Positions 30,184-60,400 of a stretch of DNA of 64,000 nucleotides are shown piece after piece; the first letter of the stretch is position 1; each line of letters opens with the position of its first letter. The translations under genes and the position numbers were made by a program. The DNA comes from Candidatus Omnitrophota bacterium (GTDB lineage Bacteria; Omnitrophota; Gorgyraeia; Gygaellales; Profunditerraquicolaceae): positions 503,221 through 567,220 of the forward strand of contig QZKH01000003.1 in assembly GCA_003598025.1 (NCBI GenBank). Reading direction: 5' to 3'. The notes under the pieces are model-generated. The model worked only from the letters and a program-made list of their open reading frames with translations, did no database searches and was not told where the DNA came from.

Positions 30184-33100
30184 TTACACCATGCCTTCTA
30201 ATTCTTTATTGGCTTTATCTAACTTGTCAAGGTACTGCGTATCAACCTTTGATTTTTCGATAGGCTTAAAGATAAGCTGCTTAATCTTGCCTTCATCATC
30301 CAGCTGGACTTTACCGGTTTCATCGGTCTTGGCAACAATATATTCCTTTAATTCCTTAGGCAGCTGCTCGTAGAATTTCGGCTCTTTGGCAAGACCGGCA
30401 ACAATCAGGCCTAAGCTAGAGAGGGTTTTGGTTTCTTCTCCGCGCTTGACTAAGACATCAACCTTTTTGCCCCAATACCTGATATTATCTTCAAAGATAA
30501 TCCTGATTGAGCCAGCTATTAGATACGGCTCAAGGCTCTTAATAATATAGTCCTGGGGGATATCCGGTATGGTAACTAAGCTCTTAAGCAAATCATCAGT
30601 TAAGCCTAAAATTTTGACAATCTTATCCCTATTCAAAGCTGGATCGATATTGATAAGTCTGACGCGTATGTTCTCTGGAATCTGTTTCTTTTCCTGCGCC
30701 TGATACAATGAAGCAAGCGCTTCTCTAAAGCCAAGTCCTTTTAGCTGAGGCGTGCCTTTTGAGGTATCGATAAGAGTATCGACATCAATTTCTAGCGTCA
30801 TTCCGTCATAACCAATACAAAGCATATTAATAGCCTGAATTGCGCTGTTGCTTAAGACTAAATCATTATTCTCATTAACACTAAACAAGGCTCCAGCGAA
30901 AGGATCAGCCGTCTTTATTTTTAGCTTCTCTGTATTTTCCCTGTTAAATTTATCCTCAAGGACTTTTATGGCATCGCTGACTGCCTGGTTATCCGGTTCT
31001 TTCTCAAAGAGCAGCCTTAAAAACGGCAAGGCTTCAACAGCGCCAAATTTTGCTAAAGCAATGGCTGCATTATTTCTTATTTCCCGACTCGGGCTATATA
31101 AGGAATTGATAAGCTTAGAATCTACTTCTCTTAATAACATGACCAAGTCAGCATCGTTTAGCCTGATTTGCTGTTCTTGCTCAATAGACCTTGCTTTCTT
31201 GCTTGCCCAATCAACCCTGGGAAGATTACCCAGGTTAATAGTAGTGTTGATAGTACGGAATTCTTGCTCAATGCCCGGAGGCAAAGTCACGGAAGTCTTA
31301 AATAATAATCCCATAAACAGCCGTTCCAGCTCCTGATCTGCCGGATGAGAAAGCTTATAGAACGCTGAACCGACCTCATGAACGATAATCCTGAATAAGG
31401 CTACCAAAATCTGCTTATCTCTGTTTTTTATGCCCTGGTTTATCTCTTCAACAGTAACCGGCCTTCCCAATAAATCCTCAAGACAGGACCGCTGAATATA
31501 AAAGGTATTACCGCTAAGAGTCGCACCAAAGGTTGAACGTCCGTTGTCAATAATGTATATATTTAAAGTCCTGAGGTAATCTATCAGTTCGTTAGCGTGG
31601 TTGGGAAATATGCGCGAGAAAAATACTGTGAGTGCAACAAGAAAATCAGGATCCAGCGGCATACCCTTAATTTTTCCCAATTCATAAGATTCTTTTATTT
31701 CTCGTGCCATAGGAGGCGGAAAATCTCCAAACTTAGCCGGAAGATTAGTCGTATCTCTGAACATGTTGTCAAAGAATAATTTTCTTAAGCCCTCTATAAC
31801 ACTGTCTCTTGTATCAGGAAAATCAAGGCTAAAATTATTATTAGGCGCCTGGGGCTTCTTTTCTTGAGGCTTAGGCTGAGGAATAGGTTGAGGCGACGGG
31901 GTAACCGGCTTGGGTCTTTCCAGTTCTGGCTCATAGACCGGCGGTTCTTCTATTATAGGCCTTACTTGTTTTAGTTTTGGCTTATTAAAATCTAAAATCT
32001 CTTCTATTCTTTCATCAAAACGGCTTCCCTTGCCTTTTTCGCTTTTTCCAACAATTTTGATTTCATATTCTTCAGCTAAGCGGGAAACATCCTTAGCCAA
32101 CTGCTCTGTCCACGGGATCCCTTTTCTTGCAGCGAGTTTCTTCGCTCCTAGAAGAATTGCCTCGTGGGCAAGCAGGACTGCGACTTCAAAAGTATAGAGC
32201 TGCTCGTAGGTAAGCTGGTCTATGTAGATTGAATTATTAGAAAGTCCGTTGTGAGCTATCTGATAGGCATTTTCATTGTTTACCAATAAGCCGGGAGGAG
32301 AATTATTGTGCGGTACTATCAAGACAATATTTGCTATCGAAAGTATCTCCGGAATATCAACTCTGCCTAATCTTGGAATTTGCACAGAAGGATATCTTTT
32401 TAACGACGAGATTACCCAGGCAATATCCTGTGCGTATTTTGCGCAGTTATCTTTCCAGCCGGATGCATCGCCCCAGATAAGGCTGCCCCTTCCTTCTCTT
32501 TGCGCTGCTGTAATAACCTCATTGACATCCATGTGTTCATCCGGGCTGAACATACCTTTTCCTTTAGCTGCGCCTGCAAAGTCAGACTTAATTCTATTGG
32601 CAAGCAGGTGTAAAGTTCGTTGCCAGCCATGCTCTCCGCCCTGATCGTAAAACTCTACTTCTTCAGGGATATTATGTTTTGCGCCAACGGAATAAACTTT
32701 TGCCCCGGGGATAATCATCCTGCGGTCTAATCCTGAAGGCCCGAAGTCGTCTCCCACAATAAGGATCTGTCGTGGTTGTATGTCCTGCGGAAGATAATTC
32801 CTGAACATTCCTACTGCCGCAGCTTTATCCACTCCTTTAGAAACTATATGTATAGTCCCTCCTCCAGAGACCAGTATATCTAACTGCCAGCTGCCGGGGA
32901 TTCTGCGTTTAATTCTTTCTATTAATTCTTTTTTCTGATCCGCTGAAGTGCTTTCTTTGATGCCCAGAGTCAATGAAATATCCCTGTTATGAATAAAGGT
33001 AACACCCGGATCCTGGGTTAGAATGGGGCCTAAGACTGGAATATTGCCTTTTGGATTAACCACTTCTTTTATTGCGCTTCTTATGATTTCCTGCAATTCT

Positions 33101-45100: not shown

Positions 45101-48100
45101 ACTCCTATGGAAAGCGGATCCAAGGCGTATAAGGTTGTTCCACCGGTCTCACCTAATTCCCTGCGCAATGAGTTAATCTGTTCTTCGTATCTTGCTTTCT
45201 CCTGCTCAAGACGGCCAAGCTTTTCTTTAACTTTCCTAAGTTTTGAAGTTAAACCGTCTACTGCCGGCTGCAAGGCTTCGATAACAATCCTATCGTTCTG
45301 TCTTTTTGCCTCTTCCAGGCCCTCACTTAATTCCCTAAGATCGGTTTGAACCTTAGCAATTGTTCCTTCCTGTTCTCTGAATTTAACCAAGAATTGGTTA
45401 TAATCATCAGTCAAGGCCTTAAGCCTTGCCCTCTTGCTTTCTGCTTCTCCCATATTAGGAGCGGGCAGCGCTCTTGCTTGCGGTGCCGGAGGCAGTTCAG
45501 AGATGCTTTCTTCTTCTGTAACGACAACCTGACCCTCTATGACATCTTCCGGCAAGTTCCTGGCTAATTCTGCCTGGATTTCTCTTCTTACATCGCCTTC
45601 GGTTACTTCTATATCTTGAGAGGCTTTTTTTGCCAGATATAAAAGCACGCGCCTGGCTATTTCAGGATTTAGGTATAATGATTTGTTTAGGGCAACTTTG
45701 GAATATCCGGTCATCATCTCAGGGAATGCCGGTATCTGCGACATACGGCGTTCTATAGTATTTATCCATTCCTGTACTAAAGGATCATTCTCAATTTGAG
45801 GATTATTGGTAAGAATCCACTTTAAATAACGAGGCAATCGCCCATATCTTTCGTTTATCTCTTCGCTAACATAAAGAGTCTGTTCTTCCGTACTTGGAGC
45901 ATGAAAGCGGATCATGTGCTGAATTTGATTTTCAATAATACGCTGGAATTCTCTTTCCAGTTCTGCTATATAGCCATCCGTTAAGAGCCGGTAAAGCGCC
46001 TCATCAGAAAGTCCTTCGTATTGATCCAGCGCTTGCTCGGTAACCCTATCTCGGGCATTGTCAATAGCCCGTTCAAAATCACGCAAAACTTTTTCATCCG
46101 TGCCATCCATCATCCGCTGCATATTTTCTAATATATGGATTACCTTATCTCTATCTGAGGTATCCTGATTAAGCATGGATAGGGGCATGGGTAAAGGCAG
46201 TTCACCAGGACCCACAGGCCTAAAGCTCCTGGCTAAAGCGTCCTTTGAGCCTTGAGCAATGGAACCGCTTAACTGCTGGATGCGGTTTTCTAACTCTTGG
46301 CGCATGGTAACGGGCAAATTATGATTCGGCTGTATACCTTGAGGGTTGCTGATTATGCTTGCCACCGGCCTTGCAACTTGAGGCCTGCTGAAAGTTGTTA
46401 CTATGGTAGGCTCAATTACAACCGGAGCCACTTCCTGAACAGGAGTCTTTCCCTTCGAAGAAATCTTCTTAATGATGCGATAGGCAAAATATCCAATTGT
46501 GCCTGCTATCGCTAAGAAAATAGTCACGCCATGGGTAAATACATCGCTAAATGAGGCGAATATCTTAGAAGACGCAGAATTATCTTGGCCTAAAGCTGTT
46601 GTAGAAAAATACAAACTTAGCGTAAAAACACTTATCGCTGTTAAGAAAGGCCGTAAATTTATCTTAATCTTGGGTATCGCAAAGCGAGGGATACTAGCTT
46701 TAATTTCAGGCTTTGCTTTTATTGCAGCGGGCTTTTCTTGCGCCGCAGGCGCAGAAAAAGTTACTGTTGGCTCCTGTTTGCCTCCTGCTATTCTCTGTTC
46801 TATGAACTTTGCTTCCTTGGCTTTTGGTTTTAAAGATGCAGCAAAGCTTGCGAATTTCTCTAACAGCGTTCCGGAATTTCCGGCTGCCTTTGGCTTAATC
46901 TCTGCTCCAGTGAGCACCGCGTTAAAAGCTTCTGCAATATCGATTCCCTGGGCTAAGAATCTTAAAAACTTCCAGGAATTTTCTTTATTATTTGTTTTTA
47001 CAGACAGCCCATAGGCTACGCAGCCTATAACTTTGCCGTATTTGTAATTCTCAAGACCTGACTTGTATTCAGCCATCAAGTCAGCTATCCCCGGCGTATC
47101 CTGCGGCCTTGCGCCTGATTTTAAAGCTGCTGCCAGTTCTTCCGCTTTATCCGCGGTGTCCTTTGCGTTGGCAGCAAGGAATTGTTCAGGATTAGTTTGC
47201 AGTTCAAGTAGCCTTAGGAAACCAACTGCGCTAGCAAGATAAGCGCCTTCACCGTCATTTATATATCTGCCGTAGCTTCTAAGGTAATGAGTGGTTTCGT
47301 GTGCGATTATTTCTTTAAGATAATCATCTGAAAGATGTTCTCTTAAGGCGACAACTATCTTTTTATATTCCGGTTCAACGGAACCGCCGTGCTGATAATC
47401 CAATGTTTGAGAGTGATATAAAGATTTGCTTGAGAAATGGTTTAGAAGCTTGCCGCCCACAGCGTAAAACAATAACGGGCCAAAGGTGCCAAGCTGGATA
47501 AATACTTTCGCTACAGATGGATCGAATGCTCCGGTAAAGAAATACCATACCACCATTTCTAATAAGCAGGCAAATCCGAAGAACGCAGGGATACCTGACA
47601 AGGCAAGCAGCATATTTCTATTTGCTGTTTTGACCCAGCCGCGTATCTCTTCCTGTGTGTATTTTCTGAAAGGAATGGTATTACTGACTATCTCATCAAC
47701 CTTATGCTGCGAGATCTCCGGGACCATCCTTCTAGAAACATAGGAAACCTCTTCTTTAATCATATTCCTTTGAGCGGCACTAAACTCAAAAGATACTATT
47801 TTGTTCTCGCTTCCTTTATCAAACGAAGAGGCAGCTAAAGGCGAATAAAGATAGAGCGCTACAGCAACTATCCCTGTGGAAATATTCTTGATATTTACTA
47901 CGCTCTTTATCTTCCCTGTCATAGATAATATAAGCTGAGCAAATCTCTCAACCAAACCAGGGCCTTGCTGGATAGTCGGGGCTTGTTTTATAGGATTCTC
48001 CTGCTTTGGTATAGTGGCAGGTACTGTTTCTTCTAGCTGGACAGGTTTATTAATAGGCGAGATTTCCTCTAAGGCGAGGCTTACTGCTTTCTGATCTTCC

Positions 48101-49809: not shown

Positions 49810-50011
49810 CCTTTTAGTCTCATTTTTTCACTCTCGCAGGATTTGGACTTTGTTAAAGTGCTTAAGAACTGCTCAAATAAAAAGCCGAACTGATCCGACC
49901 CAAGACCTTTCGTTTCAGTCCGGCACATTCCTTATTTTAAGGAATCCGTGGCAATGCCGTAACTCTTGAAAAATTGTTAAGCAGGTCCTCCTCCCGCTTA
50001 ACAAGAAAAAT

Positions 50012-50731
50012 CTATGTTTCTTTCTTCGCAAGCGAAGATAATTTTTGCACTATATCAACAAGCCGCTCTTTATGTTTTAAGACCGCTTTTAAGATATCCG
50101 TTGTTTCGGCGAGGCGTTCTTTCTCACTCTTCTTTTTATTTAGGCCTTCCTCTTCATCAAGTGTGTAGAGTTCGCATTTATTGATGATATCGCTTGAAAT
50201 ATTTGAGAGATCATGAGCAAGGCGCCTTAAAGAAGTATCTTCTCCCGGCTCCTTAGACATTATTACTTCGAATTTGACTGCCTTTGGATAACTGCGCTCT
50301 AATACTTTTTTAATAAGAACTTCCAGCGTATGAATATCTACCGGCTTATGTACAAAATCTACTATACCTAAATCAGCTATATCCTGCATTTCTTGTTCAG
50401 ACAGGACTGCGCCTGTGACCATGGCTACTTTTGTGTCTTTATCGGTTTCACGCAAGATTCGTAAGACATCCTTACCCTCTAGGTTGCCCTCAAGCTTCAT
50501 GTCCAAAATAACCAAATCGGGTTTATTCTCTTTAATTAATCTAAGCGCTTCCTCTCCGGTACTCGCGGCAGAAACCGTAAAGTTACGCCGCGAAAAATGA
50601 TTAACCAAAGACTCGCGTATATCAACTTCATCATCCACAACTAATAATTTTGGCTTTTCTTCCATCTCGCCTTTTATTATACTGCATTTTCTCATAATTG
50701 GAACTGATTTTGACTTTAAGTCCATGGGCAA
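50012..50731 (-). CDS. Receiver domain protein with C-terminal helical region containing a HisKA-like H-box (RRLAHDLSNISSDI)
   Basis: Receiver motifs (LLVVDDEVDIRESL, ILDMKLEGNLEGKDVL); the likely true start is MEEKPK at about 50665. The C-terminal region carries AHDLSN, resembling a phosphotransfer H-box, but no ATPase domain. Confidence 0.65.
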   Translation of the reverse strand: MPMDLKSKSVPIMRKCSIIKGEMEEKPKLLVVDDEVDIRESLVNHFSRRNFTVSAASTGEEALRLIKENKPDLVILDMKLEGNLEGKDVLRILRETDKDTKVAMVTGAVLSEQEMQDIADLGIVDFVHKPVDIHTLEVLIKKVLERSYPKAVKFEVIMSKEPGEDTSLRRLAHDLSNISSDIINKCELYTLDEEEGLNKKKSEKERLAETTDILKAVLKHKERLVDIVQKLSSLAKKET

Positions 50732-50893
50732 ATAAGCTTATGATTAATAATCTTGCAAAAACGGAATATGCTGCATAAGCCGCAGTGCTGCGGCACAACA
50801 GTATTTTTTAATTGCCGGGTATAATGCGAATTCACCTGGACAACCAAAGTGTCGAATTCCTCTTTTGAATGGTTTTCTTTTTTAATCAGGGCT

Positions 50894-51082
50894 TCAATTA
50901 TTTCCATAATTTATAAGGTTAGAGAAGTTAAATAAATCTAAGATGCTGCGGTCCACCGTTGTGATCCTGTCTTCTCTTTTCTCGCGAATCACTCTAAAGC
51001 TCCCTCCGCATTCGCACTTCAATACTTTTGGCGCCGCGGTATAACCCTCTTCGCCACAGATTTTGCATTTGACTTTTACCAT
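50894..51082 (-). CDS. Small zinc-ribbon protein
   Basis: CKICGE...CECGG: two Cys pairs; 62 aa. Confidence 0.4.
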   Translation of the reverse strand: MVKVKCKICGEEGYTAAPKVLKCECGGSFRVIREKREDRITTVDRSILDLFNFSNLINYGNN

Positions 51083-51299
51083 CGCATCTTTCCTTTCTCC
51101 GTGGCAAAAAGAAAAATTTAAAGCGACCTAGAGGCTCCTGCGAGAGATTAGGGAATTTAATATCTCTTTTGGCAAGATATTATCCCCTGGTACATCCCCC
51201 AGGTCGCCAATTTGCTCGCGCGAATTCTGCTTAGGCATAATCCTTATGGAACCGGCCAAACCGATTAAGAAAGGAAGATGCTTTGTAGCTTCGCATGTA

Positions 51300-51764
51300 T
51301 CATGAATCAATTTGTGTATGTCCATCTTTCTCCTTGTTTGTTATTTTCGCCAACATTGAGTCAAGGGCGCTAAGAGGAACAGGTTTTTGCATAAACTCTG
51401 AAATATTTAATCCACTGAATTGCGGATCCTTTTGAATATCTAAAGGGTAACCGGATATCATAATAACTTTAACCGATGTATTAAACTGCCTGACTATTTT
51501 CAATAGATCTGCTCCGCTCATGCCAGGCAAGTTCATGTCTAGAATCATTAGATCTGGATTCTGTTCTTTAATAACAGTGATTGCTTCTTCCGGAGCATTT
51601 GCGACCAAAGCATCGTAGCCTTTACGTTTTAAATGAGAAGCGGTGTATTCGCAGACTTCTTTCTCATCATCCACAATTAAAAGTTTTAATTTAGCTTGAT
51701 CCATTTTGGCTCCTTTAAGTACCTTTTTTAACTTACAGCAGAAGTATAACACACACTTTATCAT
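51300..51764 (-). CDS. Stand-alone CheY-like receiver protein
   Basis: LLIVDDEKEV and ILDMNLPGMSGADLL; likely start at the internal MDQAKLK (about 51704). Confidence 0.8.
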   Translation of the reverse strand: MIKCVLYFCCKLKKVLKGAKMDQAKLKLLIVDDEKEVCEYTASHLKRKGYDALVANAPEEAITVIKEQNPDLMILDMNLPGMSGADLLKIVRQFNTSVKVIMISGYPLDIQKDPQFSGLNISEFMQKPVPLSALDSMLAKITNKEKDGHTQIDS

Positions 51765-51886
51765 TTGTCAAGGTTTACTGATAAATATGATAAATAGATA
51801 TAAATATCTGCTATACATAGTGTTATAAGATAATACTACAAAAGGTGCAAATATTATTTAACATATATTTTATCTTTATACAATAA

Positions 51887-52507
51887 ATGATAAAATTTCT
51901 CTTGACAAAACAGGTTCTTAAAGATAGAATTAAATTGGAGGATTTAAAGGTGAAAATTCACGAAAAGATAAGATTATTGATTGATGAAAATAGGCTAAAC
52001 CTTGCTGTCTTGCATAGAAAGGTTAAAGAGTTATTTGGAGACGAAGCCATTACGTATTTAACTCTTTACAGGACTGTGCATGGACTCACAAAAATAAGGG
52101 AATCCTCTCTCTTCCAAATCGCCGCTTCTTTGGACATAGCTCCTATAGAAATAAAAAAAGGAACTGATGAGGATATTGAAGTTGACCGCTATGAGTATTC
52201 CAAAAATGCCTATTTTGATGTCTTGACTAAAGACGTGGATTTCCTGCCCATAAAGTTAGTGTTACATCCTAAAGCAAAAACGCTTACTGAGCAGGATCCA
52301 ATTGAGAAAGGGAATTTTATAAAATGGGTTTACCCGCAGCGCGGAGAGATTACCTGCGTAATTACTACTGAAAACGGGATAGAAAGACACGAACTCCAGA
52401 AAACCTCCAAGCCTTTCTGGTTCAAAAGCACCTACCCTCACTATTTTGAAAATACTTCAAAAAGAAAATCAACCTGCCTGGTTATACAGTCTCCTAAATA
52501 CAGATAG
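51887..52507 (+). CDS. Putative HTH (XRE-like) + cupin-like domain regulator
   Basis: One of the few plus-strand genes. The N-terminal helix-turn-helix-like segment (LNLAVLHRKVKELFG...YLTLYRTVHGL) and a beta-rich C-terminus are compatible with an XRE-cupin architecture. Weak. Confidence 0.35.
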   Translation: MIKFLLTKQVLKDRIKLEDLKVKIHEKIRLLIDENRLNLAVLHRKVKELFGDEAITYLTLYRTVHGLTKIRESSLFQIAASLDIAPIEIKKGTDEDIEVDRYEYSKNAYFDVLTKDVDFLPIKLVLHPKAKTLTEQDPIEKGNFIKWVYPQRGEITCVITTENGIERHELQKTSKPFWFKSTYPHYFENTSKRKSTCLVIQSPKYR

Positions 52508-52525
52508 CATTATATAGGTAAGGAT

Positions 52526-52918
52526 TTAAGGCACTACCGGATGGTATTTGTTTATGGCTTTAAGCTTCTCCTGGATTTTCGCCATGAGTAACTTTAAAGC
52601 AAGTGGTTTGGGAATATATTCGGCACCTAAGTCCTGGATTTCTTTTGAAACTTCGGCACTATCCCACTTTGTGATCACAAAAACAATCACATCTGGAACT
52701 ATTTTTTTTGCTTCTTTCAAAACTTCTAAGCCTGAAATCCCTGGCATCTTATAATCCAAAAGCATAAGGTCGCAGCCATTTTCTTTTAGATGCGTCAAGG
52801 CCTCGTAACCGTTGGAAGCCTCATAAAGCTCACAATGGAGCCTTTCTGAGATAAATTTATTCAGGGTTTGACGCAATCCATCTTCATCATCTGCAATAAT
52901 AATCTTTGGTATATTCAT
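52526..52918 (-). CDS. Stand-alone CheY-like receiver protein
   Basis: IIIADDEDGL, LLDYKMPGISGLEVL and K in YIPKP. Confidence 0.8.
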   Translation of the reverse strand: MNIPKIIIADDEDGLRQTLNKFISERLHCELYEASNGYEALTHLKENGCDLMLLDYKMPGISGLEVLKEAKKIVPDVIVFVITKWDSAEVSKEIQDLGAEYIPKPLALKLLMAKIQEKLKAINKYHPVVP

Positions 52919-52940
52919 AACATCCTCCGGCTTATCAAAC

Positions 52941-53300
52941 TTACTTATAAATCAGCTTAGCCACCACTCCCTCAAGCTCAAGCATATTAAAAGGTTTCTT
53001 GATATAATTATTTGCTCCGAGATCCTGCGCTTCCTTACGCGTCGATTCATCGCCAAGAGCAGTGAACATTACCACAGGCGTTTGCTTGTCATTTTCTCTT
53101 ATGCGCTTTAGCACTTCTAAGCCGTTTATGCCAGGAAGTTTGATATCCAAAAGTACGACATCCGGCTTGTCCTTTTCAAAACTTACAAGGCCGTCTTCTC
53201 CGGTAAAACTGGCCAAAATATGACAGCCTCTTGTCTTGAAGAAACCTTTCAAATAAACAACCGTCTCTCTATCATCATCAATAATCAACAATTTTGCCAT
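52941..53300 (-). CDS. Stand-alone CheY-like receiver protein
   Basis: LLIIDDDRETV, LLDIKLPGINGLEVL, YIKKP. Confidence 0.8.
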   Translation of the reverse strand: MAKLLIIDDDRETVVYLKGFFKTRGCHILASFTGEDGLVSFEKDKPDVVLLDIKLPGINGLEVLKRIRENDKQTPVVMFTALGDESTRKEAQDLGANNYIKKPFNMLELEGVVAKLIYK

Positions 53301-53302
53301 AG

Positions 53303-53554
53303 TTATTGAATCTTCCTTTTAATCAAGTAGTCAAGGATATCGGAAACTTTCCTTATTTTTTCTGCATCCTCATCGGGTATCTCGATTCCGTACGCCTCTT
53401 CCAAAGCCATAACCAACTCTACGCTGTCTAAGCTATCCATCCCGAGTTCTTCGGTTAAATCAGAATCGATTTTAACCTTGTCCTTATCCACCCCTAATTG
53501 CTCGGAGATAATGGAACTTACCTTAAGAAATGTAGTTTCGTTATATGGGCTCAT
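53303..53554 (-). CDS. Acyl carrier protein
   Basis: 83 aa; LGMDSLDSVELVMALEEAYGIEIPDE is the phosphopantetheine-attachment DSL motif. It overlaps the upstream gene by 4 nt (operon). Confidence 0.75.
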   Translation of the reverse strand: MSPYNETTFLKVSSIISEQLGVDKDKVKIDSDLTEELGMDSLDSVELVMALEEAYGIEIPDEDAEKIRKVSDILDYLIKRKIQ

Positions 53555-54435
53555 TTTGCAAAAAGTTTGTTTTCAATACAAGTTTCGATAATCCTGGCTT
53601 TTAATTTCTCTATGTGCCTACGCCTGCCCTGGGGGCTGAAATCATCAAGCTGCATTTCCGGCACATCCTTCATCTCTTCATAAAGCTGATCCAGTTTATC
53701 CTTGTGTTCCTGCTCTAAGACATCCCTTCTTGAATGGACAATGAGAGCCTTGACTATGCCCTTTCCCTGTAACTCTAAAATCTCATCAGAAAGATCAAAT
53801 GTACCTGAACCTAATTCATCAGTCTTTTTTAGTGGTACAACCATAGCCAGAATCACTATATCCGGCTTAAATTCTTTGATATTCTCCCTTGCCTCTTCCT
53901 GGGTGTAAATGAAACGCGTTTCAAGCTGCGCCTTGCCAGTCTGGATTAAATCATCCAAAGGGACAAGCGGCAAAGAAGGCTTAGAGTCTTCTATAAAAAG
54001 GATCCTAGCTTTAATAACATGGCCTCCTATTTCTTCGGCTTTTGCCCTCCATGACCAAGAAGGCGGCCTTTTTACCTCTAGAAGCTCTCTCATCCGCTTG
54101 ATAATCGCATCTAAGCGCACTGGTTTTACAAAAAAACCGTCTACTCCCAATTCTTTAGCCCTTTGCAAGAATGTATCCGCATAACCAGTAATAACCATGA
54201 TCCTGGTTTTGGGGCTATGCTGTTTTATAGCCTTGATTACTTCTATACCGTCAACCTTAGGCATCCTCATATCCAAAAGCACAAGGTCGATATTGTTCTC
54301 TTTAATTATCTTAATCGCTTCATCGCCGTCAAATGCAGAAAACATCTGGTGGCCCCTATTTGTTAATACTTCGCTTAAGGTCTCGTTTATTTCCTTCTCA
54401 TCGTCTACTACTAAAATCTTCCTTGTTTCAGCCAT
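53551..54435 (-). CDS. Tandem receiver protein (canonical REC + pseudo-receiver lacking the phospho-Asp)
   Basis: First domain: ILVVDDEKEI, LLDMRMPKVDG. Second domain: ILFIEDSKPS...IVILAMVVP, with Ala at the phospho-acceptor position. Confidence 0.7.
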   Translation of the reverse strand: MAETRKILVVDDEKEINETLSEVLTNRGHQMFSAFDGDEAIKIIKENNIDLVLLDMRMPKVDGIEVIKAIKQHSPKTRIMVITGYADTFLQRAKELGVDGFFVKPVRLDAIIKRMRELLEVKRPPSWSWRAKAEEIGGHVIKARILFIEDSKPSLPLVPLDDLIQTGKAQLETRFIYTQEEARENIKEFKPDIVILAMVVPLKKTDELGSGTFDLSDEILELQGKGIVKALIVHSRRDVLEQEHKDKLDQLYEEMKDVPEMQLDDFSPQGRRRHIEKLKARIIETCIENKLFAK

Positions 54436-54452
54436 CCTTACTCCTTTCCATC

Positions 54453-54698
54453 CTAAAGGTATTGATTCCTCGACTGTAATGTCTCTTTTATTTTATTTAA
54501 TTCACCAGCGGCCTCCTGCGCTTTGGTTTCAATAATCTTCAGACCTTTTGTAAACTCATCTTTCAAATTTCCTGGTAGATCCGTACGGTCTTTAATTATA
54601 TCTAGTAAATATCCAGACACAGCGCAAACGCCATTAAGCTGGTTTGCAGCTTCATGGTTCAAATCAGGAATCTTACGAACCTCTTTATTCTCTTCCAT
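54453..54698 (-). CDS. Hypothetical helical small protein in the phosphorelay operon
   Basis: 81 aa; all-helical; an HEAANQLNG segment is only vaguely Hpt-like. Confidence 0.3.
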   Translation of the reverse strand: MEENKEVRKIPDLNHEAANQLNGVCAVSGYLLDIIKDRTDLPGNLKDEFTKGLKIIETKAQEAAGELNKIKETLQSRNQYL

Positions 54699-54704
54699 TA
54701 TACC

Positions 54705-54896
54705 TTATTTCATTACCGACCATATCAAAGATACAACCCAGCCTAAGCCGGTCCACCCTAAAAGAAAATTCAGTAAAAACACTGCAAGTTTATTCTTATG
54801 GTTTCTTAATACCGCAACTAAAGTCGGTAGAAAGTATAACACAATAGCCAAAATAATCAGCGATAGTTCCGGCAAACCAAAGCTTTGAAATAACAT
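54705..54896 (-). CDS. Superinfection-immunity-like small membrane protein (Imm_superinfect pattern)
   Basis: YFLPTLVAVLRNHKNKLAVFLLNFLLGWTGLGWVVSLIW matches the conserved PT.VA..R.H.N...I...N.LLGWT..GW..ALIW pattern. Confidence 0.5.
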   Translation of the reverse strand: MLFQSFGLPELSLIILAIVLYFLPTLVAVLRNHKNKLAVFLLNFLLGWTGLGWVVSLIWSVMK

Positions 54897-54898
54897 AT

Positions 54899-55783
54899 TT
54901 AGATCTCTCTGTATAGCTTATGTTTTATACAAGCTCTCTTTAATGAGTCGCTTAATTTTTCTAAGATCTCTTTATCCGGAAGCATATATTTAGGATCCAG
55001 GGGCGTAGCTACATATGCAAGTCCCCTTTTAATCAAGTTATCCGCCTCCTCCCATTTCATGGCTGGATCGCCAAAAAGGATAATTTCTTTGGGCGGATAA
55101 GGAAAATCCATTAGGCTTGCCGCAAATTCTCCGAAAAGCCCCACGAGGGCAACGTCAAAAAGAATAATGTCCGGCTGAAAATGATGAATGGAATCAAGAT
55201 GTTTGGCGTCTTCAACCATGCCAAACCATTTTATTTCGTATTCCGCCTGGGTACATTCCTTGTTTGAGAAATATTCCTCCAGTAAACCAACCAGCATTTC
55301 CCTGGGTTCGATAAGCAGTATTTTTGCCTTAGGGATAATTTTGTCTTCCGGGAGATCCTTTTCGTTTACTACCGGTTCTTTATCTAGGGTAGCTGTAGTC
55401 TTAGACCCTATGGTCGGGGCTGCGCCTTTACTGAACAGCGCTTCAATCTTTTCTTTAATGTCACTGACCAGAACTGGCTTTACAAAGAAACCGTCTGAGC
55501 CTATCTGATCTACTTTTTTCTTATATTGCGAGTCATAGCCAGTAGTTACCACGACAAACATACCAGGGTAATCTTTACGGATGGTTTTTAATACCTCTAA
55601 ACCGTCTATGCCGGGAAGCTTCATATCAAGAAGTACAAGATCAGGAGCAGAATCCTTGAGTCGTGCGAGTGCGGTCTCCCCGTCAAAAGCCTGTAAAACC
55701 TGGTATCCTCTTAATTGCAGCATACCCGCCAAGGTTTCGGTAACAAGCTTCTCATCGTCAACAATTAATATCTTTTTAGGCAT
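54899..55783 (-). CDS. Tandem receiver protein (REC + second receiver-like domain)
   Basis: ILIVDDEKLV, LLDMKLPGIDGLEVL; C-terminal ILLIEPREML...IILFDVAL second domain. Confidence 0.7.
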   Translation of the reverse strand: MPKKILIVDDEKLVTETLAGMLQLRGYQVLQAFDGETALARLKDSAPDLVLLDMKLPGIDGLEVLKTIRKDYPGMFVVVTTGYDSQYKKKVDQIGSDGFFVKPVLVSDIKEKIEALFSKGAAPTIGSKTTATLDKEPVVNEKDLPEDKIIPKAKILLIEPREMLVGLLEEYFSNKECTQAEYEIKWFGMVEDAKHLDSIHHFQPDIILFDVALVGLFGEFAASLMDFPYPPKEIILFGDPAMKWEEADNLIKRGLAYVATPLDPKYMLPDKEILEKLSDSLKRACIKHKLYREI

Positions 55784-55788
55784 AGTTT

Positions 55789-56151
55789 TTAATCTTTAAG
55801 GTTATTTTCAACCACCTCATCAAGCGTGCTCATTGTAAGAGGCTTGTTCAGAAAAGTTTCTACTCCCATGGTAATTGCTTCTTCTTTAACTTTATCCTCA
55901 AGCGCACCTGTTGAGATAATCACCTTAACAGTAGAGCCAGATTCTCTAATCTTTTTTAAAACATCGAGGCCGGTCATCGGGCCTTCTAACTTATAATCAA
56001 GAAGCGCTAAGTCCGGCTGCTTCTCCAACAATAATTTTACCGCTTCTTCTCCCGAAGAACAAGAATATACTTCCAGGCCCCTTCTTTGAAAATGGCTTTT
56101 GAGAACCTCTGTTACTTCTGCTTCATCATCAACAATGAATAATTTTTTCAT
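55789..56151 (-). CDS. Stand-alone CheY-like receiver protein
   Basis: LFIVDDEAEV, LLDYKLEGPMTGLDVL. Confidence 0.8.
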   Translation of the reverse strand: MKKLFIVDDEAEVTEVLKSHFQRRGLEVYSCSSGEEAVKLLLEKQPDLALLDYKLEGPMTGLDVLKKIRESGSTVKVIISTGALEDKVKEEAITMGVETFLNKPLTMSTLDEVVENNLKD

Positions 56152-56525
56152 TGTCTGTTGTTGGAGACAGTTTTTGCTGCTTGAGCAATAAACTCTTTTA
56201 GTTTGGCCAAAGGAATCGGCTTTACCAGAAAATAATCCGCCCCTTGTTGAAAAGATTTTTCCTTAGTCGTTTCCACGTCAAATCCGGTTAATACAATCAC
56301 GCATATTTTTGGATTAAATGCTTTCGCTTCTCTTAATACCTGTAGACCTGACATATCTTTTAAATTAAGGTCTAAGATGATAATCTGCGGATTTTGTTCC
56401 TTAATTAGATCTATTGCCGCTTGCCCTGTCGCTGCCTTTAACACCGCATAGCCCTGATTAGCCAAGTTATCAGCCATTTCATTCAAAATAAGCTCGTAAT
56501 CTTCTACGATCAAGAGTTTAAGCAT
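56148..56525 (-). CDS. Stand-alone CheY-like receiver protein
   Basis: LLIVEDYELI, ILDLNLKDMSGLQVL; 4-nt overlap with the next gene and 8-nt overlap with the kinase gene. Confidence 0.8.
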   Translation of the reverse strand: MLKLLIVEDYELILNEMADNLANQGYAVLKAATGQAAIDLIKEQNPQIIILDLNLKDMSGLQVLREAKAFNPKICVIVLTGFDVETTKEKSFQQGADYFLVKPIPLAKLKEFIAQAAKTVSNNRQ

Positions 56526-58779
56526 TATTTTTGCTTTCCTTAGTTTTTAATAAAGGTAACTCTATGGTAAAAGTTGTTCCTTGTCCGTATTCAGAGGCAA
56601 AATCAATCTTCCCCTTATGGGCAAGAATAAATTTCTTTACAACAAATAGACCAACGCCATGACCTCCTTTGCCGTACCCTTGTAGCCCTGTGGGTTTGCT
56701 ACTGTAATAACCGGCGAATATCTTTCTTTTGTCTTCCTCTTTTATACCTATGCCATTGTCAGTAATGCTTATGATAAGATAGTTATCTTTTACAAAGGCT
56801 TTTAATTCTATATGGGGAGCATAGGAATCGTTTTCAGGCCATTTAAGTTCAGGATTTCTCACTCTGATTTTGTCAATCTTTTCATATACAGCATCAAAAG
56901 AGTTATCTACCAAGTTGAATACGCAGTCTCTTATTTGGGCGTCTGAGCCAAATACCGAAGGCAAGTTTTTATCAATTTGACAGGAAATATCAACTGGTGG
57001 ACGTTTGCCTTCGATTTTATCCTGAGAGTGTTTCATTTCTACAAGCTCGAGGCTTGAATTAATAATTGAAGATGGATCGAATTCCTCAAAGTTCGGTGGC
57101 GTAGTTCCGGTCAGACTCATTATTCCTTTGGTTATCTCGCCTCCATACTGACACTCATCGGAGATTTTTTTAAGCTTAGGAAGAGATTTCTGCAGGATCT
57201 GCTTTGCTTCCGCATCTGAAAGATCGCAAACATTCCTCTCTCCGAGCATATCGAAAATACCGTCACAGGTCATAGATATGGCATAGAGCCGGTTGTTAAA
57301 CTGGTGCCCGGCGCCGAAGGATACGTCCGAAACAGCCTGTTCTCTGGAAGATTCAACTATTCTGTCTTCTTCCCCTTGCCAGAATGAAGCATTCTCGATA
57401 GCAAGCGCTGCCTGATTGGAAAGTACTTGAAGCACGTTAATTTCTTCCTTGGTGAAGGTTTCATCGTTTCTTGATCCGCCAAGAATAAGAAAACCAACCA
57501 ATTCAAGACGAAGAAGGATGGGAATAACAATATTGGCTTTAAATTTTATCAATTCGTTTTCGAGAGGCACAAGGGCATGGTTTGTTGTTGAAACGATCTT
57601 ATGCTTAATTTCTCCATATTCAATCGCTATTTTTTCTGTAAAGAGCTTATCAGCTAAGACAGAATCAAAGGGAATATTTTTAGGTAAACCATCTATTTTC
57701 GGAACAGCATAATAGGAAACCAGATTGAACTGTTTACCTTTAAGAGGATCATTCTCTAGAAGATAAAAGGCAGCATGCTTTAATTGCAAGATTTTTAAAA
57801 CATTATGAACAATCAATCCCAGCAAGGTTCTAATCCTAGTAAAGCGCATCATGTAGGAAGAAAGCTCTCGGAGATTATCCTGACGTTTGCGTTTTTCTGC
57901 AAGAAGACGAGCTTCCACACGACTAGTTAAATATATAAAAATAAATGGTCCTACTGTAGCCAAAATAAAGAAAATAATTAAAGGACACCAGAACCAACTA
58001 TTTCCAAATAAACTTATTAGCACATTTTTCCCAAAACCCGTAATTGCAAAAGGTATGCCTAAAACCAATAGATAGACGGATATGAAAACTCCAATTCGAC
58101 TCAAAGCAACATTAGGATCTACCAAGCGATAACGAAATACAGCATATGCTACAATTCCTATATAGAAACTAATCATTATATTAAAATAAGGAGGCAGATG
58201 GATGCTATACCACATAGGCCAGTTTGTGGCGCCTCCAGCGAAACCGAGCATAGCCGATATAGTAAAATATTTAATTTGCGTTCGTTTAATATCAACGCTT
58301 TCCCGAAGTTTAACTATTAACCAATAGAATCCATATAAACATTGCCAAAACCAAAAAATCAAATAGAGATGAAAGAAAAAAGTTGGGGTTGGCCAAAAAC
58401 CAAGATTATAGCGAGGAGCAAGACCAGTGTATAATCTTGAGGTAAGATTTAATATAATAAAAAATATATTGATAAGAAGAAGCACTCGCAGAAGTTTTCT
58501 TTTTTCCTCAATTAACCCTAGAAAATAGAAAACAAAGTATAGGTAGGTAATATTTATTAAAATTATACCCACAAATAACACTTTAAACCATAATAAAGCC
58601 TGTGATTCTTCTTTAGCTAATTGCCAAAAGAAATAACCAAAACTATAAAGAGCAACACTTAAATTTAGGTTAAAGAAACTGCGATTCAGTGGGTTTTTTA
58701 TATTCTTAATAACGATAAGAATTGAAACCGCAAGACAGGTAATAAAGTTTATTGCCCCTGTAAATCCTAAAAATGACAT
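56518..58779 (-). CDS. Multi-TM sensor histidine kinase (polytopic membrane sensor, GAF-like region, HATPase_c)
   Basis: About 330-aa N-terminal region with about 10 TM helices; C-terminal ATP-binding boxes ITDNGIGI (G1) and GKGGHGVGL (G2); 753 aa. Confidence 0.8.
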   Translation of the reverse strand: MSFLGFTGAINFITCLAVSILIVIKNIKNPLNRSFFNLNLSVALYSFGYFFWQLAKEESQALLWFKVLFVGIILINITYLYFVFYFLGLIEEKRKLLRVLLLINIFFIILNLTSRLYTGLAPRYNLGFWPTPTFFFHLYLIFWFWQCLYGFYWLIVKLRESVDIKRTQIKYFTISAMLGFAGGATNWPMWYSIHLPPYFNIMISFYIGIVAYAVFRYRLVDPNVALSRIGVFISVYLLVLGIPFAITGFGKNVLISLFGNSWFWCPLIIFFILATVGPFIFIYLTSRVEARLLAEKRKRQDNLRELSSYMMRFTRIRTLLGLIVHNVLKILQLKHAAFYLLENDPLKGKQFNLVSYYAVPKIDGLPKNIPFDSVLADKLFTEKIAIEYGEIKHKIVSTTNHALVPLENELIKFKANIVIPILLRLELVGFLILGGSRNDETFTKEEINVLQVLSNQAALAIENASFWQGEEDRIVESSREQAVSDVSFGAGHQFNNRLYAISMTCDGIFDMLGERNVCDLSDAEAKQILQKSLPKLKKISDECQYGGEITKGIMSLTGTTPPNFEEFDPSSIINSSLELVEMKHSQDKIEGKRPPVDISCQIDKNLPSVFGSDAQIRDCVFNLVDNSFDAVYEKIDKIRVRNPELKWPENDSYAPHIELKAFVKDNYLIISITDNGIGIKEEDKRKIFAGYYSSKPTGLQGYGKGGHGVGLFVVKKFILAHKGKIDFASEYGQGTTFTIELPLLKTKESKNNA

Positions 58780-58783
58780 TATT

Positions 58784-60139
58784 TTAGACCTTTTGAATTG
58801 TTATAAATAATATTATATTACTTGGCTCTCTAGAAATCTTTATATCGAAACCATCTATCTCGCTTTTAACTATTAGATTTAACAGATGATTCTCTTCTCG
58901 CGGATAGAAACTCCAATCACACCACCAATCAGGCGGTAAAGGTTTATATTTGCTTACATCTTTATGTGCGATAATTAATCTACCCTTAGAATTTAACAAG
59001 TTAAAACAAAAGCTTATTAAATTTTTTAAAACTCTATCAGGGAGATAATCGGCTAATCCTATACTATAGATTAAATCATACTTACCTAAGATCTCAGAAT
59101 ACTTGCTATTTTGATTAATGTAATCTAATACGTTGTGCTGAAAAAAATGAAGGGGTACCTTGTTAACAACTTCGTTTAAGGACTCTTCTGAAAATTTTAG
59201 GGCTTCTTCATCTTGATCAACTAATGAAAAGGAAACATTGTTCTTGAGCAACAATTTTGAGTCAGATAGCACCTCCTTTATTTCTCGACAAGAACCACAA
59301 GCTATATTTAAAATTCTAATCTTTGGTAAATGTACTTCCTTAATGATAAAATCCCTTAATATTTTCCCCATTTCATTTTCTCGGTTTCTTACTGCTACAG
59401 CATAAGCATTACTTAATAAATATTTATCATAACAATATCCTAAAGCCGATGATAGAGGCTTGTTATCATAAATTATTTCTATTAATTTATAATCCCCAGG
59501 ATAGCCTCTGGGTTTCTCAAAAGCATGCTTAACGATCTCTGCCTTATAAACCCATGGCCCACAAATCTCCCTGAAAGCCTTCTTAACCTTCTTAATCAGT
59601 ATTTTATTATTTAACTGATTTTCTAATTCGTCCCCTTTTTGCACGATATTATCGTTAATAGTAACTATCTCCTTATAAATTTTCTCTTTGTCTTCACCCT
59701 GTTCTAAAGATTGTGCCATTTTGACTAATTTATTCATATAATCTTTAAAATCTACATTCCAGAAATTAGAAATCAAATCCTGAGTCTTTTTATCACCTAC
59801 CTTATTTAATAGCGATTTAAGACTATTTTTGATTAAAATGGTACGAAGGTTTTCTAAATCCTTCTCCTTTAGTCTTATAAAACATGCCCCATAAGTAAAT
59901 TTACCATCAGAAAGTAAATGCTTGTTCCATATTACCTTAAATTCCGTATCAATATATTCTTCTGCAGAAAGTTTTATTTTAGCCTTAGCCCTAGTTAAAA
60001 GTAATGGTTTTTGTAAAATGAATTTAAACCCGACCTCGCTTAAGTCAACAGTTGTACCAATAAATTCTGGACTTATTTGTATCGGAAGTTCTGCGTCAAT
60101 CCTAGGAAAAATCCTTTTTTCTGATTCTCTGTATTTCAT
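58784..60139 (-). CDS. PilZ-domain protein fused to a class-I SAM-dependent methyltransferase-like domain
   Basis: N-terminal RxxxR (EKRIFPR) and DLSEVGFKF (DxSxxG) PilZ motifs; C-terminal ILNIACGSCRE (motif I-like), DLIYSIGLADY and RLIIAHKD. Confidence 0.5.
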   Translation of the reverse strand: MKYRESEKRIFPRIDAELPIQISPEFIGTTVDLSEVGFKFILQKPLLLTRAKAKIKLSAEEYIDTEFKVIWNKHLLSDGKFTYGACFIRLKEKDLENLRTILIKNSLKSLLNKVGDKKTQDLISNFWNVDFKDYMNKLVKMAQSLEQGEDKEKIYKEIVTINDNIVQKGDELENQLNNKILIKKVKKAFREICGPWVYKAEIVKHAFEKPRGYPGDYKLIEIIYDNKPLSSALGYCYDKYLLSNAYAVAVRNRENEMGKILRDFIIKEVHLPKIRILNIACGSCREIKEVLSDSKLLLKNNVSFSLVDQDEEALKFSEESLNEVVNKVPLHFFQHNVLDYINQNSKYSEILGKYDLIYSIGLADYLPDRVLKNLISFCFNLLNSKGRLIIAHKDVSKYKPLPPDWWCDWSFYPREENHLLNLIVKSEIDGFDIKISREPSNIILFITIQKV

Positions 60140-60181: not shown

Positions 60182-60400
60182 TTATCTTGAAACAACATCT
60201 GTTTTCCTGCGTCCTTTTTCATGGGTATAATACCTTTCCTTCTCGGCCATCCATTTATCAATCGAGTCTTTATTGAACCGCCATATCCTACCTACTTTTG
60301 CCGCTGGGATACGATGTTTAGAGAGAAGGACGTATACCATAGGTTTCGAAAGCTTAACATAACGACACACTTCCTCAAGAGTCATAAATTTTTCTTCCAT
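60182..60400 (-). CDS. Excisionase/AlpA-like HTH DNA-binding protein
   Basis: 72 aa; MTLEEVCRYVKLSKPMVYVLLSKHRIPAAKVGRIWRFNKDSIDKWM is a typical HTH_17/Xis-type motif. Confidence 0.55.
   Translation of the reverse strand: MEEKFMTLEEVCRYVKLSKPMVYVLLSKHRIPAAKVGRIWRFNKDSIDKWMAEKERYYTHEKGRRKTDVVSR

Follow-up and report, generated by a model that had tools for sequence, protein, structure and literature searches.

The stretch of DNA analysed here, referred to below as the window, comprises 64 kb of a metagenome-assembled genome of Candidatus Omnitrophota and carries, in the interval 50012-58779, a dense cluster of two-component signalling genes beside a gene for a giant protein of 6541 residues. 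Coordinates of open reading frames (ORFs) are those of an ORF list, domains of the window proteins were called with Pfam, and genes and leader elements between 28917 and 63402 lie on the minus strand unless marked (+). The signalling genes are densely packed from 60400 down to 50012, apart from one plus-strand gene, which encodes a putative XRE-type regulator with a cupin domain (XRE-cupin) and parts two minus-strand transcription units. Unit 1 (60400 to 52526) encodes, in this order, an HTH_17 protein, a PilZ-methyltransferase, a seven-transmembrane (7TM) GAF kinase, the receivers REC_a and REC_b, a receiver/pseudo-receiver protein (RECps1), an Imm_superinfect peptide, the 81-residue protein p81, a second receiver/pseudo-receiver protein (RECps2), an acyl carrier protein (ACP), REC_c and REC_d. 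Unit 2 starts from a promoter at 51771 and comprises REC_e, the small ORFs s65, s62 and s63, a receiver fused to a helical hairpin (REC-DHp), a terminator/antiterminator leader and the giant gene. Genes overlap by 8, 4 and 4 nt or are separated by gaps of 2-22 nt, in line with the tight packing described in an earlier note on this DNA. The same note had read the locus as one operon with seven receiver genes behind the kinase and had counted three more receiver proteins before the giant gene. Instead, six REC genes follow the kinase, only two, at 51300 and 50012, lie between these and the giant gene, and the plus-strand gene (GTG 51950 to 52507) cuts the locus into two units. The p81 gene (54453-54698) went unmentioned there. 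In total, eight REC genes encode eight intact REC domains and two pseudo-receiver domains.

The receivers are genuine, as had been supposed: the proteins encoded at 56148, 55789, 54899, 53551, 52941, 52526, 51300 and 50012 all match PF00072 with E values of 1e-20 to 1e-30. Eight strong matches of this kind within 8.8 kb cannot be due to chance. Unit 1 contributes the single-domain receivers REC_a (125 residues, 56148..56525, E 4.4e-25), REC_b (120 residues, 55789..56151, 1.2e-24), REC_c (119 residues, 52941..53300, 8.2e-28) and, as its last gene, REC_d (130 residues, 52526..52918, 1.1e-20), as well as RECps1 (294 residues, 54899..55783, 1.7e-27 for residues 5-113) and RECps2 (294 residues, 53551..54435, 7.7e-30). 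Orthologues of REC_a, REC_b and RECps2 in the related locus L103 score 180, 153 and 445 bits, respectively, and those of REC_c and REC_d are fused into a 259-residue REC-REC protein in most relatives. REC_e, the first gene of unit 2 (ORF 51300-51764, 4.2e-21), likely encodes 134 residues from ATG 51704 (51300..51704), a start suggested by the promoter and the ribosome-binding site; no receiver occupies this position in any related locus that could be checked, and s65 comes first after the promoter there. All eight REC domains keep the acidic DD pair, the phospho-acceptor Asp, the T/S and the K-P residues and are thus not a set of diverse unrelated domains; the same residues are intact in the further receiver that had been reported beyond the giant gene (28239-28610). 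The window RECs are only 24-36% identical to one another and each has its own orthologue elsewhere, which argues for old, specialised paralogues and not for a recent amplification.

RECps1 and RECps2 share 30% identity over their full length, and RECps1 has about 70 full-length homologues (38-86% identity), of which the named ones are nearly all from Omnitrophota. The C-terminal halves of both 294-residue proteins are REC-like (hhalign against a REC profile: 95% probability, E 4e-8). In these halves EPR replaces the DD pair and the Lys is absent, while the acceptor Asp is kept in RECps1 and substituted by Ala in RECps2; since they are REC-like and lack both the acidic pair and the Lys, 'pseudo-receiver' is the right term. 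No DNA-binding or enzymatic output domain was found by Pfam on any REC protein in 50012-58779. The nearest output-type regulator, a REC + HTH_8 protein (27011-27613(+)), is encoded outside the conserved module. A chemotaxis-type arrangement with multiple CheY proteins as a phosphate sink was rejected, as neither the window nor the related loci contain genes for CheA, CheW or methyl-accepting chemotaxis protein-type receptors. In three further contigs, L005, L006 and L007 (for example L005:8435-9488), a paralogous REC/pseudo-REC gene and a gene for a 71-residue DHp protein resembling p81 and its orthologues (class A, see below) adjoin a type II secretion ATPase gene (MshEN/T2SSE), with no phosphorelay cluster around them; through this pair, the family may be connected with secretion or pilus systems.

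Upstream of the receivers lies a single polytopic histidine kinase (56518-58779), as the earlier note had recognised. It consists of HisKA_7TM, GAF, DHp and HATPase_c (E 2.2e-21) domains and is not a hybrid kinase. Its H-box GHQFNN, near residue 492, aligns with HEIGN of the relatives' kinases, which carry the H-box INHEIGNPLNII. A profile of the kinase DHp region matches the DHp domains of FixL, CckA, LvrB and ZraS in the PDB with E values of about 3e-4. At position H+1 a Gln is present in the kinases of the window and of L098 (AHQMLN), and a Glu in the other kinases of the family (NHEIGN). In tested HisKA kinases the acidic residue at H+1 is indispensable for autokinase activity only, and phosphatase activity specifically depends on the Asn at H+4 (PMC3510030).

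Two further proteins of the locus carry a conserved His on a helical hairpin and have no ATPase domain. The first, p81, has the conserved His15 and the H+4 Asn in the motif HEAAN; its AlphaFold2 model is a two-helix hairpin (residues 13-37 and 43-76, pLDDT 83), and orthologues are found in nine loci, the family being termed class A here. The second is the 239-residue REC-DHp protein, or REC_Hbox (50012..50731, PF00072 4.1e-23), in which the H-box AHDLSN that had been noticed on a REC-fused helical tail without ATPase is indeed present, with the His at position 172. The AlphaFold2 model of REC-DHp shows a receiver followed by two long helices (pLDDT 83), and in its roughly 80 homologues the Asp, the K-P pair and the His are invariant. 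A second kind of small His-carrying protein, class B, occurs in related loci. No class B protein was found among the window ORFs; here RECps2 fills the place of the 'REC + class B' pair, and the same replacement is seen in L103.

These proteins are related to the kinase of their own locus. Among all window ORFs, the kinase DHp profile matches the REC-DHp tail at 5e-8 over 66 residues, placing His172 on the kinase His, and ranks p81 third (E 0.049). The class A profile, run against 1019 ORFs, aligns end to end and His on His with the two-helix DHp domains of two kinases (3e-5 and 5e-5) and matches a REC-DHp protein at 6e-4. By hhalign, the kinase DHp aligns with class A at P 1.3e-4 and with class B at P 3.4e-5, in both cases with the conserved His in register. 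When the REC-DHp tail profile was compared with 1.84 billion representative proteins, only 92 clusters were retrieved, and these fall into three groups: REC-DHp proteins; HisKA_7TM-GAF-HATPase kinases of about 700 residues, matched between GAF and HATPase with E values down to 2e-10; and complete DHp-only proteins of 68-111 residues that begin a few residues before the H-box. On the same stretch the sister kinases of the second group show sub-threshold Pfam HisKA matches (2.7e-5 to 7e-5). Pfam HisKA gave no match even at E up to 10 for the window kinase, p81 or the REC-DHp tail, and at that threshold no Pfam family at all was retrieved for p81, class A, class B, the REC-DHp tail, the small ORFs or the cupin protein. 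Against PDB sequences the small-protein profile returned coiled-coil noise only and the REC-DHp tail profile nothing. By these comparisons, p81 and the REC-DHp tail are DHp domains without an ATPase and belong to the same narrow subfamily as the DHp of the 7TM kinase. Without exception, the kinase, REC-DHp, p81 and the class A and class B proteins carry Asn at H+4. The acidic residue at H+1 is lost, being Lys in class A and His in class B, a change that fits domains that never meet an ATPase. Two other origins or functions were considered for REC-DHp and rejected. A role as an ANTAR antiterminator, an idea raised by the adjacent leader terminator, is at odds with the lack of any ANTAR match at E up to 10 and with the DHp nature of the tail, and the fold match to EutV covers the receiver only (root-mean-square deviation 18.7 Å). 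A viral origin of the family was discarded, since no REC-DHp homologue was found in the viral contigs of IMG/VR.

The gene order is conserved. Genomic contexts came mainly from 11 targeted look-ups of distant homologues, onto which the window proteins were mapped by phmmer; L007 and L008 were obtained from a profile scan of genome contigs with the REC/pseudo-REC alignment, whose other matches were almost all unrelated receivers owing to generic patterns, and L087, as the one true locus, from a metagenome scan with the pseudo-REC domain that a loose pattern saturated. The order, whose recurrence the earlier note had proposed to check, was found again in at least ten other Omnitrophota contigs at about 45% protein identity (synteny loci L001, L003, L096, L097, L098, L099, L101, L102, L103, L087 and L008). 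At its head the consensus has HTH_17, a variable enzyme block, the 7TM kinase, one or two receivers and class A (81-93 residues). REC/pseudo-REC, a receiver, class B (85-98 residues), the ACP, REC_c + REC_d and the convergent cupin regulator follow, and it ends with s65, s62, s63, sometimes a p421-like ORF and REC-DHp, and the giant gene. The positions of the class A and REC/pseudo-REC genes are exchanged in the window, L098 and L103, where class A comes second. Of the nine loci whose downstream sequence is long enough, six (window, L001, L096, L098, L099 and L102) have an orthologous giant gene behind the cluster; the giants of the relatives have 4,423-4,919 residues and match that of the window with 494-2670 bits.

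The 6541-residue giant of the window (30184..49809) is mostly unannotated, with an N-terminal membrane anchor, TPR, coiled coils, an M28/M20 peptidase-like domain and HEAT repeats recognised by Pfam and by hydrophobic segments. Its stop codon is overlapped by the gene for p421 (421 residues, 28917..30182), which lacks a Pfam match. The p421 domain recurs inside the giants of L099 and L102 (phmmer, 165-175 bits) and also as ORFs of 366-376 residues adjoining the REC-DHp gene in L101 and L102 (57-63 bits), and so appears to behave as a module moving in and out of the giant ORF. In L102 (10814-11141) the conserved giant N-terminus (MLDWQ...) forms a separate ORF of 107 residues directly before an ORF of 4819 residues, which suggests a frameshift, an assembly error or a programmed split. 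The small ORFs s65 (51128-51325), s62 (50894-51082, with a CxxC...CxC zinc ribbon) and s63 (50716-50907) have no Pfam match; L001, L096, L098, L099, L101, L102 and L103 carry orthologues of them in the interval from the cupin gene to the giant gene.

Unit 2 and its giant gene are preceded by a conserved control region. The XRE-cupin gene (51950..52507(+)) is convergent with unit 1 and divergent from unit 2. Its listed ORF begins at 51887; the likely start is GTG 51950, which gives the N-terminus MKIHEKIRLL and matches all relatives. The protein is 37-70% identical to homologues with Pfam Cupin_2 and faint HTH_3 matches, and the N-terminal family profile matches the XRE regulator DdrOC (E 0.002). 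XRE-cupin proteins are local repressors of adjacent genes that bind palindromes, and their cupin domains sense small molecules (PMC7901475). The 245 bp between the regulator gene and unit 2 (51705..51949) contain the unit 2 promoter, TTGACA-17-TGnTATACT (a TG-extended TATACT) at 51771-51743(-), and the regulator promoter, TTGACA-17-TAGAAT at 51902-51930(+). These are the two best matches of the region, with 11/12 positions each, and their hexamer pairs are invariant in an alignment of seven loci. Candidate operator half-sites are TTATCA at 51793-51788, 51784-51779 and 51893-51888 and TGATAA at 51763-51758, so that the -35 box of unit 2 is enclosed by inverted half-sites with a spacing of about 31 bp and a second set lies near the regulator promoter. 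The positions of the half-sites are fixed and their sequence varies by lineage: TTATCA/TGATAA in the window, ATGACA/TGTCAT in L098, L096 and L099, and CGACA/TGTCG in L101, L102 and L087. Such a coordinated change is what an operator co-evolving with a dimeric DNA-binding protein would look like. The XRE-cupin repressors ErfA, PsdR and PauR of Pseudomonas combine an N-terminal XRE helix-turn-helix with a C-terminal cupin, an architecture that the window protein may share; as here, the gene adjoins a divergent likely target and palindromic half-sites overlap a promoter. Their known targets are small metabolic operons, in contrast to the signalling and giant-gene operon that would be the target here, with its half-sites about 31 bp apart.

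A second potential control point precedes the giant gene itself. Directly after the REC-DHp gene, a pattern scan located a terminator-like hairpin with a 12-bp stem and a T-run (49969..50004), and a hairpin of similar sequence is also seen in the aligned L098 sequence. The giant-gene leader (49875..49960) then carries a terminator-like stem GCCGGACUGA / UCAGUUCGGC (49924-49884) with a U-tract. The 10-bp stem, GCCGGACUGA / UCAGUCCGGC, and the U-tract are kept in all six giant-gene leaders compared (window 49875-49960(-), L098:15215-15374, L102:10680-10817, L001:13985-14137, L099:10700-10839 and L096:14225-14384), with one compensatory and several G-U substitutions across these loci. Folding without the 3' arm yields, in the window, L098 and L001, a competing upstream helix in which CGGCA pairs with UGCCG of the terminator 5' arm. 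This would be the usual layout of an antiterminator, and the leader, which matches no Rfam family, qualifies as a cis-regulatory RNA candidate of giant genes. There thus appear to be two gates before the giant gene, the promoter/operator of unit 2 and the leader terminator.

The ACP of the operon (53303..53554, PP-binding domain PF00550, 4.3e-16) is AcpP-like and carries the DSLD serine, confirming its earlier assignment. Its best PDB matches are ACPs of type II fatty acid synthases (Aquifex ACP, 79 bits; E. coli AcpP, 66 bits), and its start overlaps the RECps2 stop by 4 nt. An ACP is embedded at the same position, between class B/RECps2 and REC_c, in 8 of 11 loci, and in the relatives the ACP gene overlaps its neighbours, class B and REC_c, at its start and at its stop codon. 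The DSL serine is conserved in all of these embedded ACPs, and those of six other loci form a group of their own, with 43-65% mutual identity and 21-35% identity to the ACPs of the enzyme blocks. No description of an ACP translationally coupled to receiver genes was found in the literature.

The enzyme genes upstream of the kinase are translationally coupled to it, and their content varies from locus to locus around a fixed signalling core. The slot holds ketosynthase, reductase, ACP, ketosynthase and amine oxidase in L001; a type I polyketide synthase in L098; ketosynthase, ACP and reductase in L099; three ketosynthases, a FabA/ApeI-like dehydratase, an ACP and an amine oxidase in L103; an ACP and an amine oxidase in L097; a short-chain dehydrogenase/NAD_binding_4 reductase in L096; and, in L003, a fusion of a methyltransferase with an alpha-oxoamine synthase, the latter scoring higher against serine palmitoyltransferase (304 bits) than against CqsA (129 bits), a member of the same superfamily. 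In the window this place is taken by a PilZ + S-adenosylmethionine-methyltransferase gene (58784..60139) with a PilZ match of 7.9e-5, which is above the cut-off, and sub-threshold matches to Methyltransf_12 and Methyltransf_20. The PilZ motifs RxxxR and DxSxxG are present as RIFPR and DLSEVG in the translation, a methyltransferase homologue (110 bits) fills the same slot in L102, and no relative was found in the PDB. The G+C content of the gene is 0.31, compared with about 0.40 around it. Partner enzymes for the ACP (ketosynthase, acyltransferase or phosphopantetheinyl transferase) are encoded in L001, L098, L099 and L103; none was found in the 64-kb window. The most economical reading is that the ancestral operon coupled an ACP-dependent lipid or polyketide pathway to the kinase, which would be why the module contains an ACP, and that the lineage of the window swapped the enzymes and kept the ACP. 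The earlier note had called the ACP unexplained. Its context can now be accounted for, since it is a conserved cluster member and ketosynthase, polyketide synthase or alpha-oxoamine synthase genes stand at the operon head in relatives. Among the receivers, the ACP may have a direct protein-protein role.

Taking these observations together, we consider it probable, though far from assured, that the locus encodes a conserved multi-step phosphorelay module in which the kinase answers a membrane or lipid cue, DHp proteins link or reset the receivers, and outputs by protein contact are tied to the giant gene. The identities of the domains, their intact catalytic residues, the synteny, the DHp homology and the conservation of promoter, operator and leader are direct observations; the ligand, the route of the phosphoryl groups, the part played by the ACP and the giant gene as target are inferred. 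The phosphorelay network proposed earlier is supported in its multi-step form, as ATPase-less DHp proteins with a conserved His, p81 and REC-DHp, are the component that a His-Asp-His-Asp relay needs. In such a scheme, the kinase would autophosphorylate upon a membrane- or lipid-associated cue and phosphorylate the single-domain receivers. The phosphoryl group would then be handed on between receivers, or drained, by the DHp proteins that lack an ATPase (in the window p81 and REC-DHp, in the relatives class A and class B). Because no receiver has a DNA-binding output, the outputs would be protein-protein contacts, and the signal would end in control of the giant gene, whose transcription may be gated separately at two points, the unit 2 promoter with an XRE-cupin repressor and the terminator of the leader.

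All parts are of known kinds (kinase, receivers, DHp, ACP and XRE-cupin), and their logic resembles two characterized relays. With the Spo0 relay of Bacillus subtilis (KinA - Spo0F - Spo0B - Spo0A) the module shares the His-Asp-His-Asp design, single-domain receivers as intermediates and, after them, a histidine phosphotransferase of the DHp (four-helix-bundle) type, and structures of Spo0F are the best structural matches to the receiver of REC-DHp. Spo0B, however, keeps a degenerate ATPase-like domain and the Spo0 relay ends in a DNA-binding regulator, whereas the locus has DHp-only proteins of 70-110 residues, a REC-DHp fusion, eight receivers, two pseudo-receivers and an ACP, and no output regulator. 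In the Caulobacter relay CckA - ChpT - CtrA/CpdR and with the single-domain hub MrrA, a dimeric DHp-type phosphotransferase feeds more than one receiver, single-domain ones included (PMC3433190 and PMC5964349). Among PDB entries, the DHp of CckA is matched by the DHp profile of the locus kinases. The phosphotransferase candidates of the locus lack any ATPase-like domain, whereas ChpT carries a pseudo-ATPase domain, and the locus kinase is not a hybrid, whereas CckA is one with a receiver of its own.

Several observations weigh against a relay of this kind. At H+1 the window kinase has Gln, where tested HisKA kinases need an acidic residue (PMC3510030); the class B protein of L099 has an Asp instead of the His; and the DHp-only proteins could be phosphatases or scaffolds. 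On the side of the giant gene, the XRE-cupin protein of the window is itself without a Pfam match, the operator assignment rests on eight sequences, and no giant gene lies downstream in L101, L087 and L003. As to the ACP, the window protein resembles E. coli AcpP (50% identity) no less than its embedded counterparts (43-49%), an embedded ACP is missing from L087, L008 and also L103, of all relatives with context the closest, and neither a ketosynthase nor a phosphopantetheinyl transferase gene is present in the 64-kb window. The loci were, moreover, sampled non-systematically, by targeted look-ups, both large collection scans having been saturated by generic patterns.

The features of the DHp proteins would also allow a dedicated-phosphatase role, and the sequence by itself is compatible with both the branched network and the phosphate sink named in the earlier note. 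One alternative is a phosphate sink without a relay. Here one kinase would serve competing receivers, and the DHp proteins would be nothing but phosphatases that reset them and so tune the kinetics of the response. The invariance of the phosphatase-specific H+4 Asn (PMC3510030) throughout the kinase, REC-DHp, p81, class A and class B speaks for such an arrangement, as do the class B member devoid of His and the lack of a terminal output regulator in the locus. A pure phosphatase would not need the His, yet this residue is invariant in 34/34 aligned REC-DHp proteins and 8/8 class A proteins. Moreover, each receiver has a conserved orthologue across the loci, pointing to distinct roles and not to interchangeable sinks. 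We regard a mere sink as rather doubtful.

Unlikely as the whole explanation, but compatible with the phosphorelay and not exclusive of it, is an autoinducer-like circuit, in which the variable enzymes and the ACP would make a lineage-specific lipid or polyketide signal that is sensed by the 7TM kinase in the membrane, the cupin or both, processed by the receiver network and used to switch the giant gene on. The coupling of enzyme genes of varying content to the kinase of a fixed signalling core, the CqsA-superfamily enzyme of L003 and the small-molecule sensing of cupin domains (PMC7901475) can all be read in this way. Known circuits of this type, RpfF-RpfC for the diffusible signal factor and CqsA-CqsS for CAI-1, similarly place the gene of an acyl-thioester-using enzyme next to that of a multi-pass membrane kinase. 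Unlike these loci, the window encodes no acyl-chain-building enzyme, having the PilZ-methyltransferase only, and its kinase lacks the hybrid architecture of RpfC and CqsS. Equally, such a lipid could serve the giant protein in a structural or anchoring capacity.

It is more improbable still that the ACP is a mere passenger, that is, a housekeeping-type acpP copy which, perhaps along with the Imm gene, landed in the receiver operon without any tie to signalling. Besides its proximity to E. coli AcpP, the window ACP is without the N-terminal extension seen in its embedded counterparts, the closest relative, L103, has its Imm homologue elsewhere and no ACP in this place, and the region is rich in mobile-element genes (IS30, serine recombinase and Rep_O-like). 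Chance insertion is, however, difficult to reconcile with the exact position of the ACP in 8/11 loci that span about 45% protein identity, with codons overlapping on both sides, or with the separation of embedded from enzyme-block ACPs. The Imm_superinfect-family protein is a different case. The membrane peptide recognised earlier is confirmed as a 63-residue protein with two hydrophobic, transmembrane helices (54705..54896; PF14373 2.4e-19, 69 bits; phrog_1039 1e-21, 79 bits). Its gene occurs in only 2 of 12 loci, the window and L103, and at different positions, in L103 between ketosynthase and amine oxidase genes and so among lipid-enzyme genes. It was therefore rejected as a core component and is a lineage-specific accessory. 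No phage structural genes were seen that would give it a phage or prophage context; the gene lies inside the signalling operon.

The surroundings of the module bear many signs of mobile DNA. Its first gene in nearly all relatives, HTH_17 (60182..60400, PF12728 3.7e-15), encodes a small excisionase/MerR-like DNA-binding protein with PHROG matches to excisionases and helix-turn-helix DNA-binding proteins; cluster-head orthologues are found in L001, L003, L096, L099, L102 and L103. Further upstream, u97, u68 and u67 (97, 68 and 67 residues; 62575-63402) have no Pfam or PHROG match. With 115-158 bits to L001 and L099 they are much better conserved than the signalling genes, and in these two loci their orthologues are followed by a DUF6876 gene and HTH_17; they may be the backbone of a mobile element. 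Between these small ORFs and HTH_17 lies an IS30-like transposase gene (HTH_38 + rve, 60533-61627), whose position beside the low-GC (31%) PilZ-methyltransferase gene suggests that the enzyme slot was recently replaced. Beyond the giant gene, the segment 16392-26393 resembles a mobile or defence island, with genes for a large serine recombinase (23717-25594), a Rep_O-like protein (25977-26393), a TaqI-type endonuclease (22147-22848), a PD-(D/E)XK nuclease and an OLD-family AAA_15-TOPRIM nuclease (16392-18362). It also encodes an unusual fusion of LexA DNA-binding, S24 peptidase and N6/N4 DNA methylase domains (20618-22150(+)).

Two riboswitches were recognised at a greater distance from the cluster. 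A c-di-GMP-I (cyclic di-GMP) riboswitch (RF01051, 71 bits, 26857-26950(+)) lies directly upstream of the REC + HTH_8 (Fis-type) gene 27011-27613(+) and adds to the PilZ domain of 58784-60139 as a hint of c-di-GMP input in the vicinity of the giant gene. The other, an nhaA-I (Na+) riboswitch (RF03057, 53 bits, 12548-12597(-)), precedes a 136-residue ORF without Pfam match (12128-12538), which is adjoined by an aquaporin/MIP gene (12865-13551).

The least likely of the alternatives is that the cluster is cargo serving an integrative element, for instance in entry, exclusion or maintenance signalling, and not the giant gene: the excisionase-like HTH_17 at its head, the conservation of u97, u68 and u67 far beyond that of the core genes, the DUF6876 or TraG-like genes upstream in L001, L099 and L096, the recombinase, Rep_O-like, restriction-modification and OLD nuclease genes beyond the giant gene and the presence of an Imm_superinfect-family gene would suit it, but no element boundaries were found, REC-DHp homologues are missing from IMG/VR viral contigs, and unit 2 is linked to the giant gene through the conservation of promoter, operator and leader. 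Mobility would in any case be compatible with a regulatory role of the phosphorelay.

Giant genes of Omnitrophota have been described as possible attachment and predation tools. According to the preprint of West-Roberts et al. (2023) and a complete-genome preprint of 2026, type II secretion/pilus loci lie upstream and polysaccharide import downstream of the largest giants. The window giant resembles these in organism group, membrane anchoring, TPR, HEAT and peptidase content and mobile-DNA-rich flanks. Neither preprint mentions adjoining response regulators, ACPs, cupin regulators or a phosphorelay, and the regulation of the giants is not discussed in them. The locus differs from the known systems in its DHp-only proteins without even a degenerate ATPase, the REC-DHp fusion, eight receivers and two pseudo-receivers without an output regulator, the embedded ACP and the recurrent adjacency to a giant gene.

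The module provides a testable regulatory context for one class of giants (4,400-6,500 residues), with a defined promoter and operator, a candidate for the repressor, an attenuator in the leader and a dedicated phosphorelay. It is also a compact natural example of ATPase-less DHp proteins, both free-standing with about 80 residues and fused to a REC domain, which could be relay phosphotransferases or dedicated phosphatases. The combination of a constant signalling core with a changing enzyme slot suggests that signalling is tied to lipid or polyketide chemistry that differs by lineage. As a more far-reaching proposal, which we put forward tentatively, the locus might be a dedicated and possibly mobile control machine for the giant protein: a lipid or polyketide pathway and c-di-GMP would feed the 7TM kinase, a DHp/receiver relay would have the acylation state of the ACP as a direct partner, and the XRE-cupin operator and the leader antiterminator would decide on expression of the giant. 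If true, this would reveal an undescribed relay component, the DHp-only protein of 70-110 residues, and a direct link from an ACP to two-component signalling, and it would offer the first regulatory handle on the giant genes of a largely uncultured, possibly predatory phylum.

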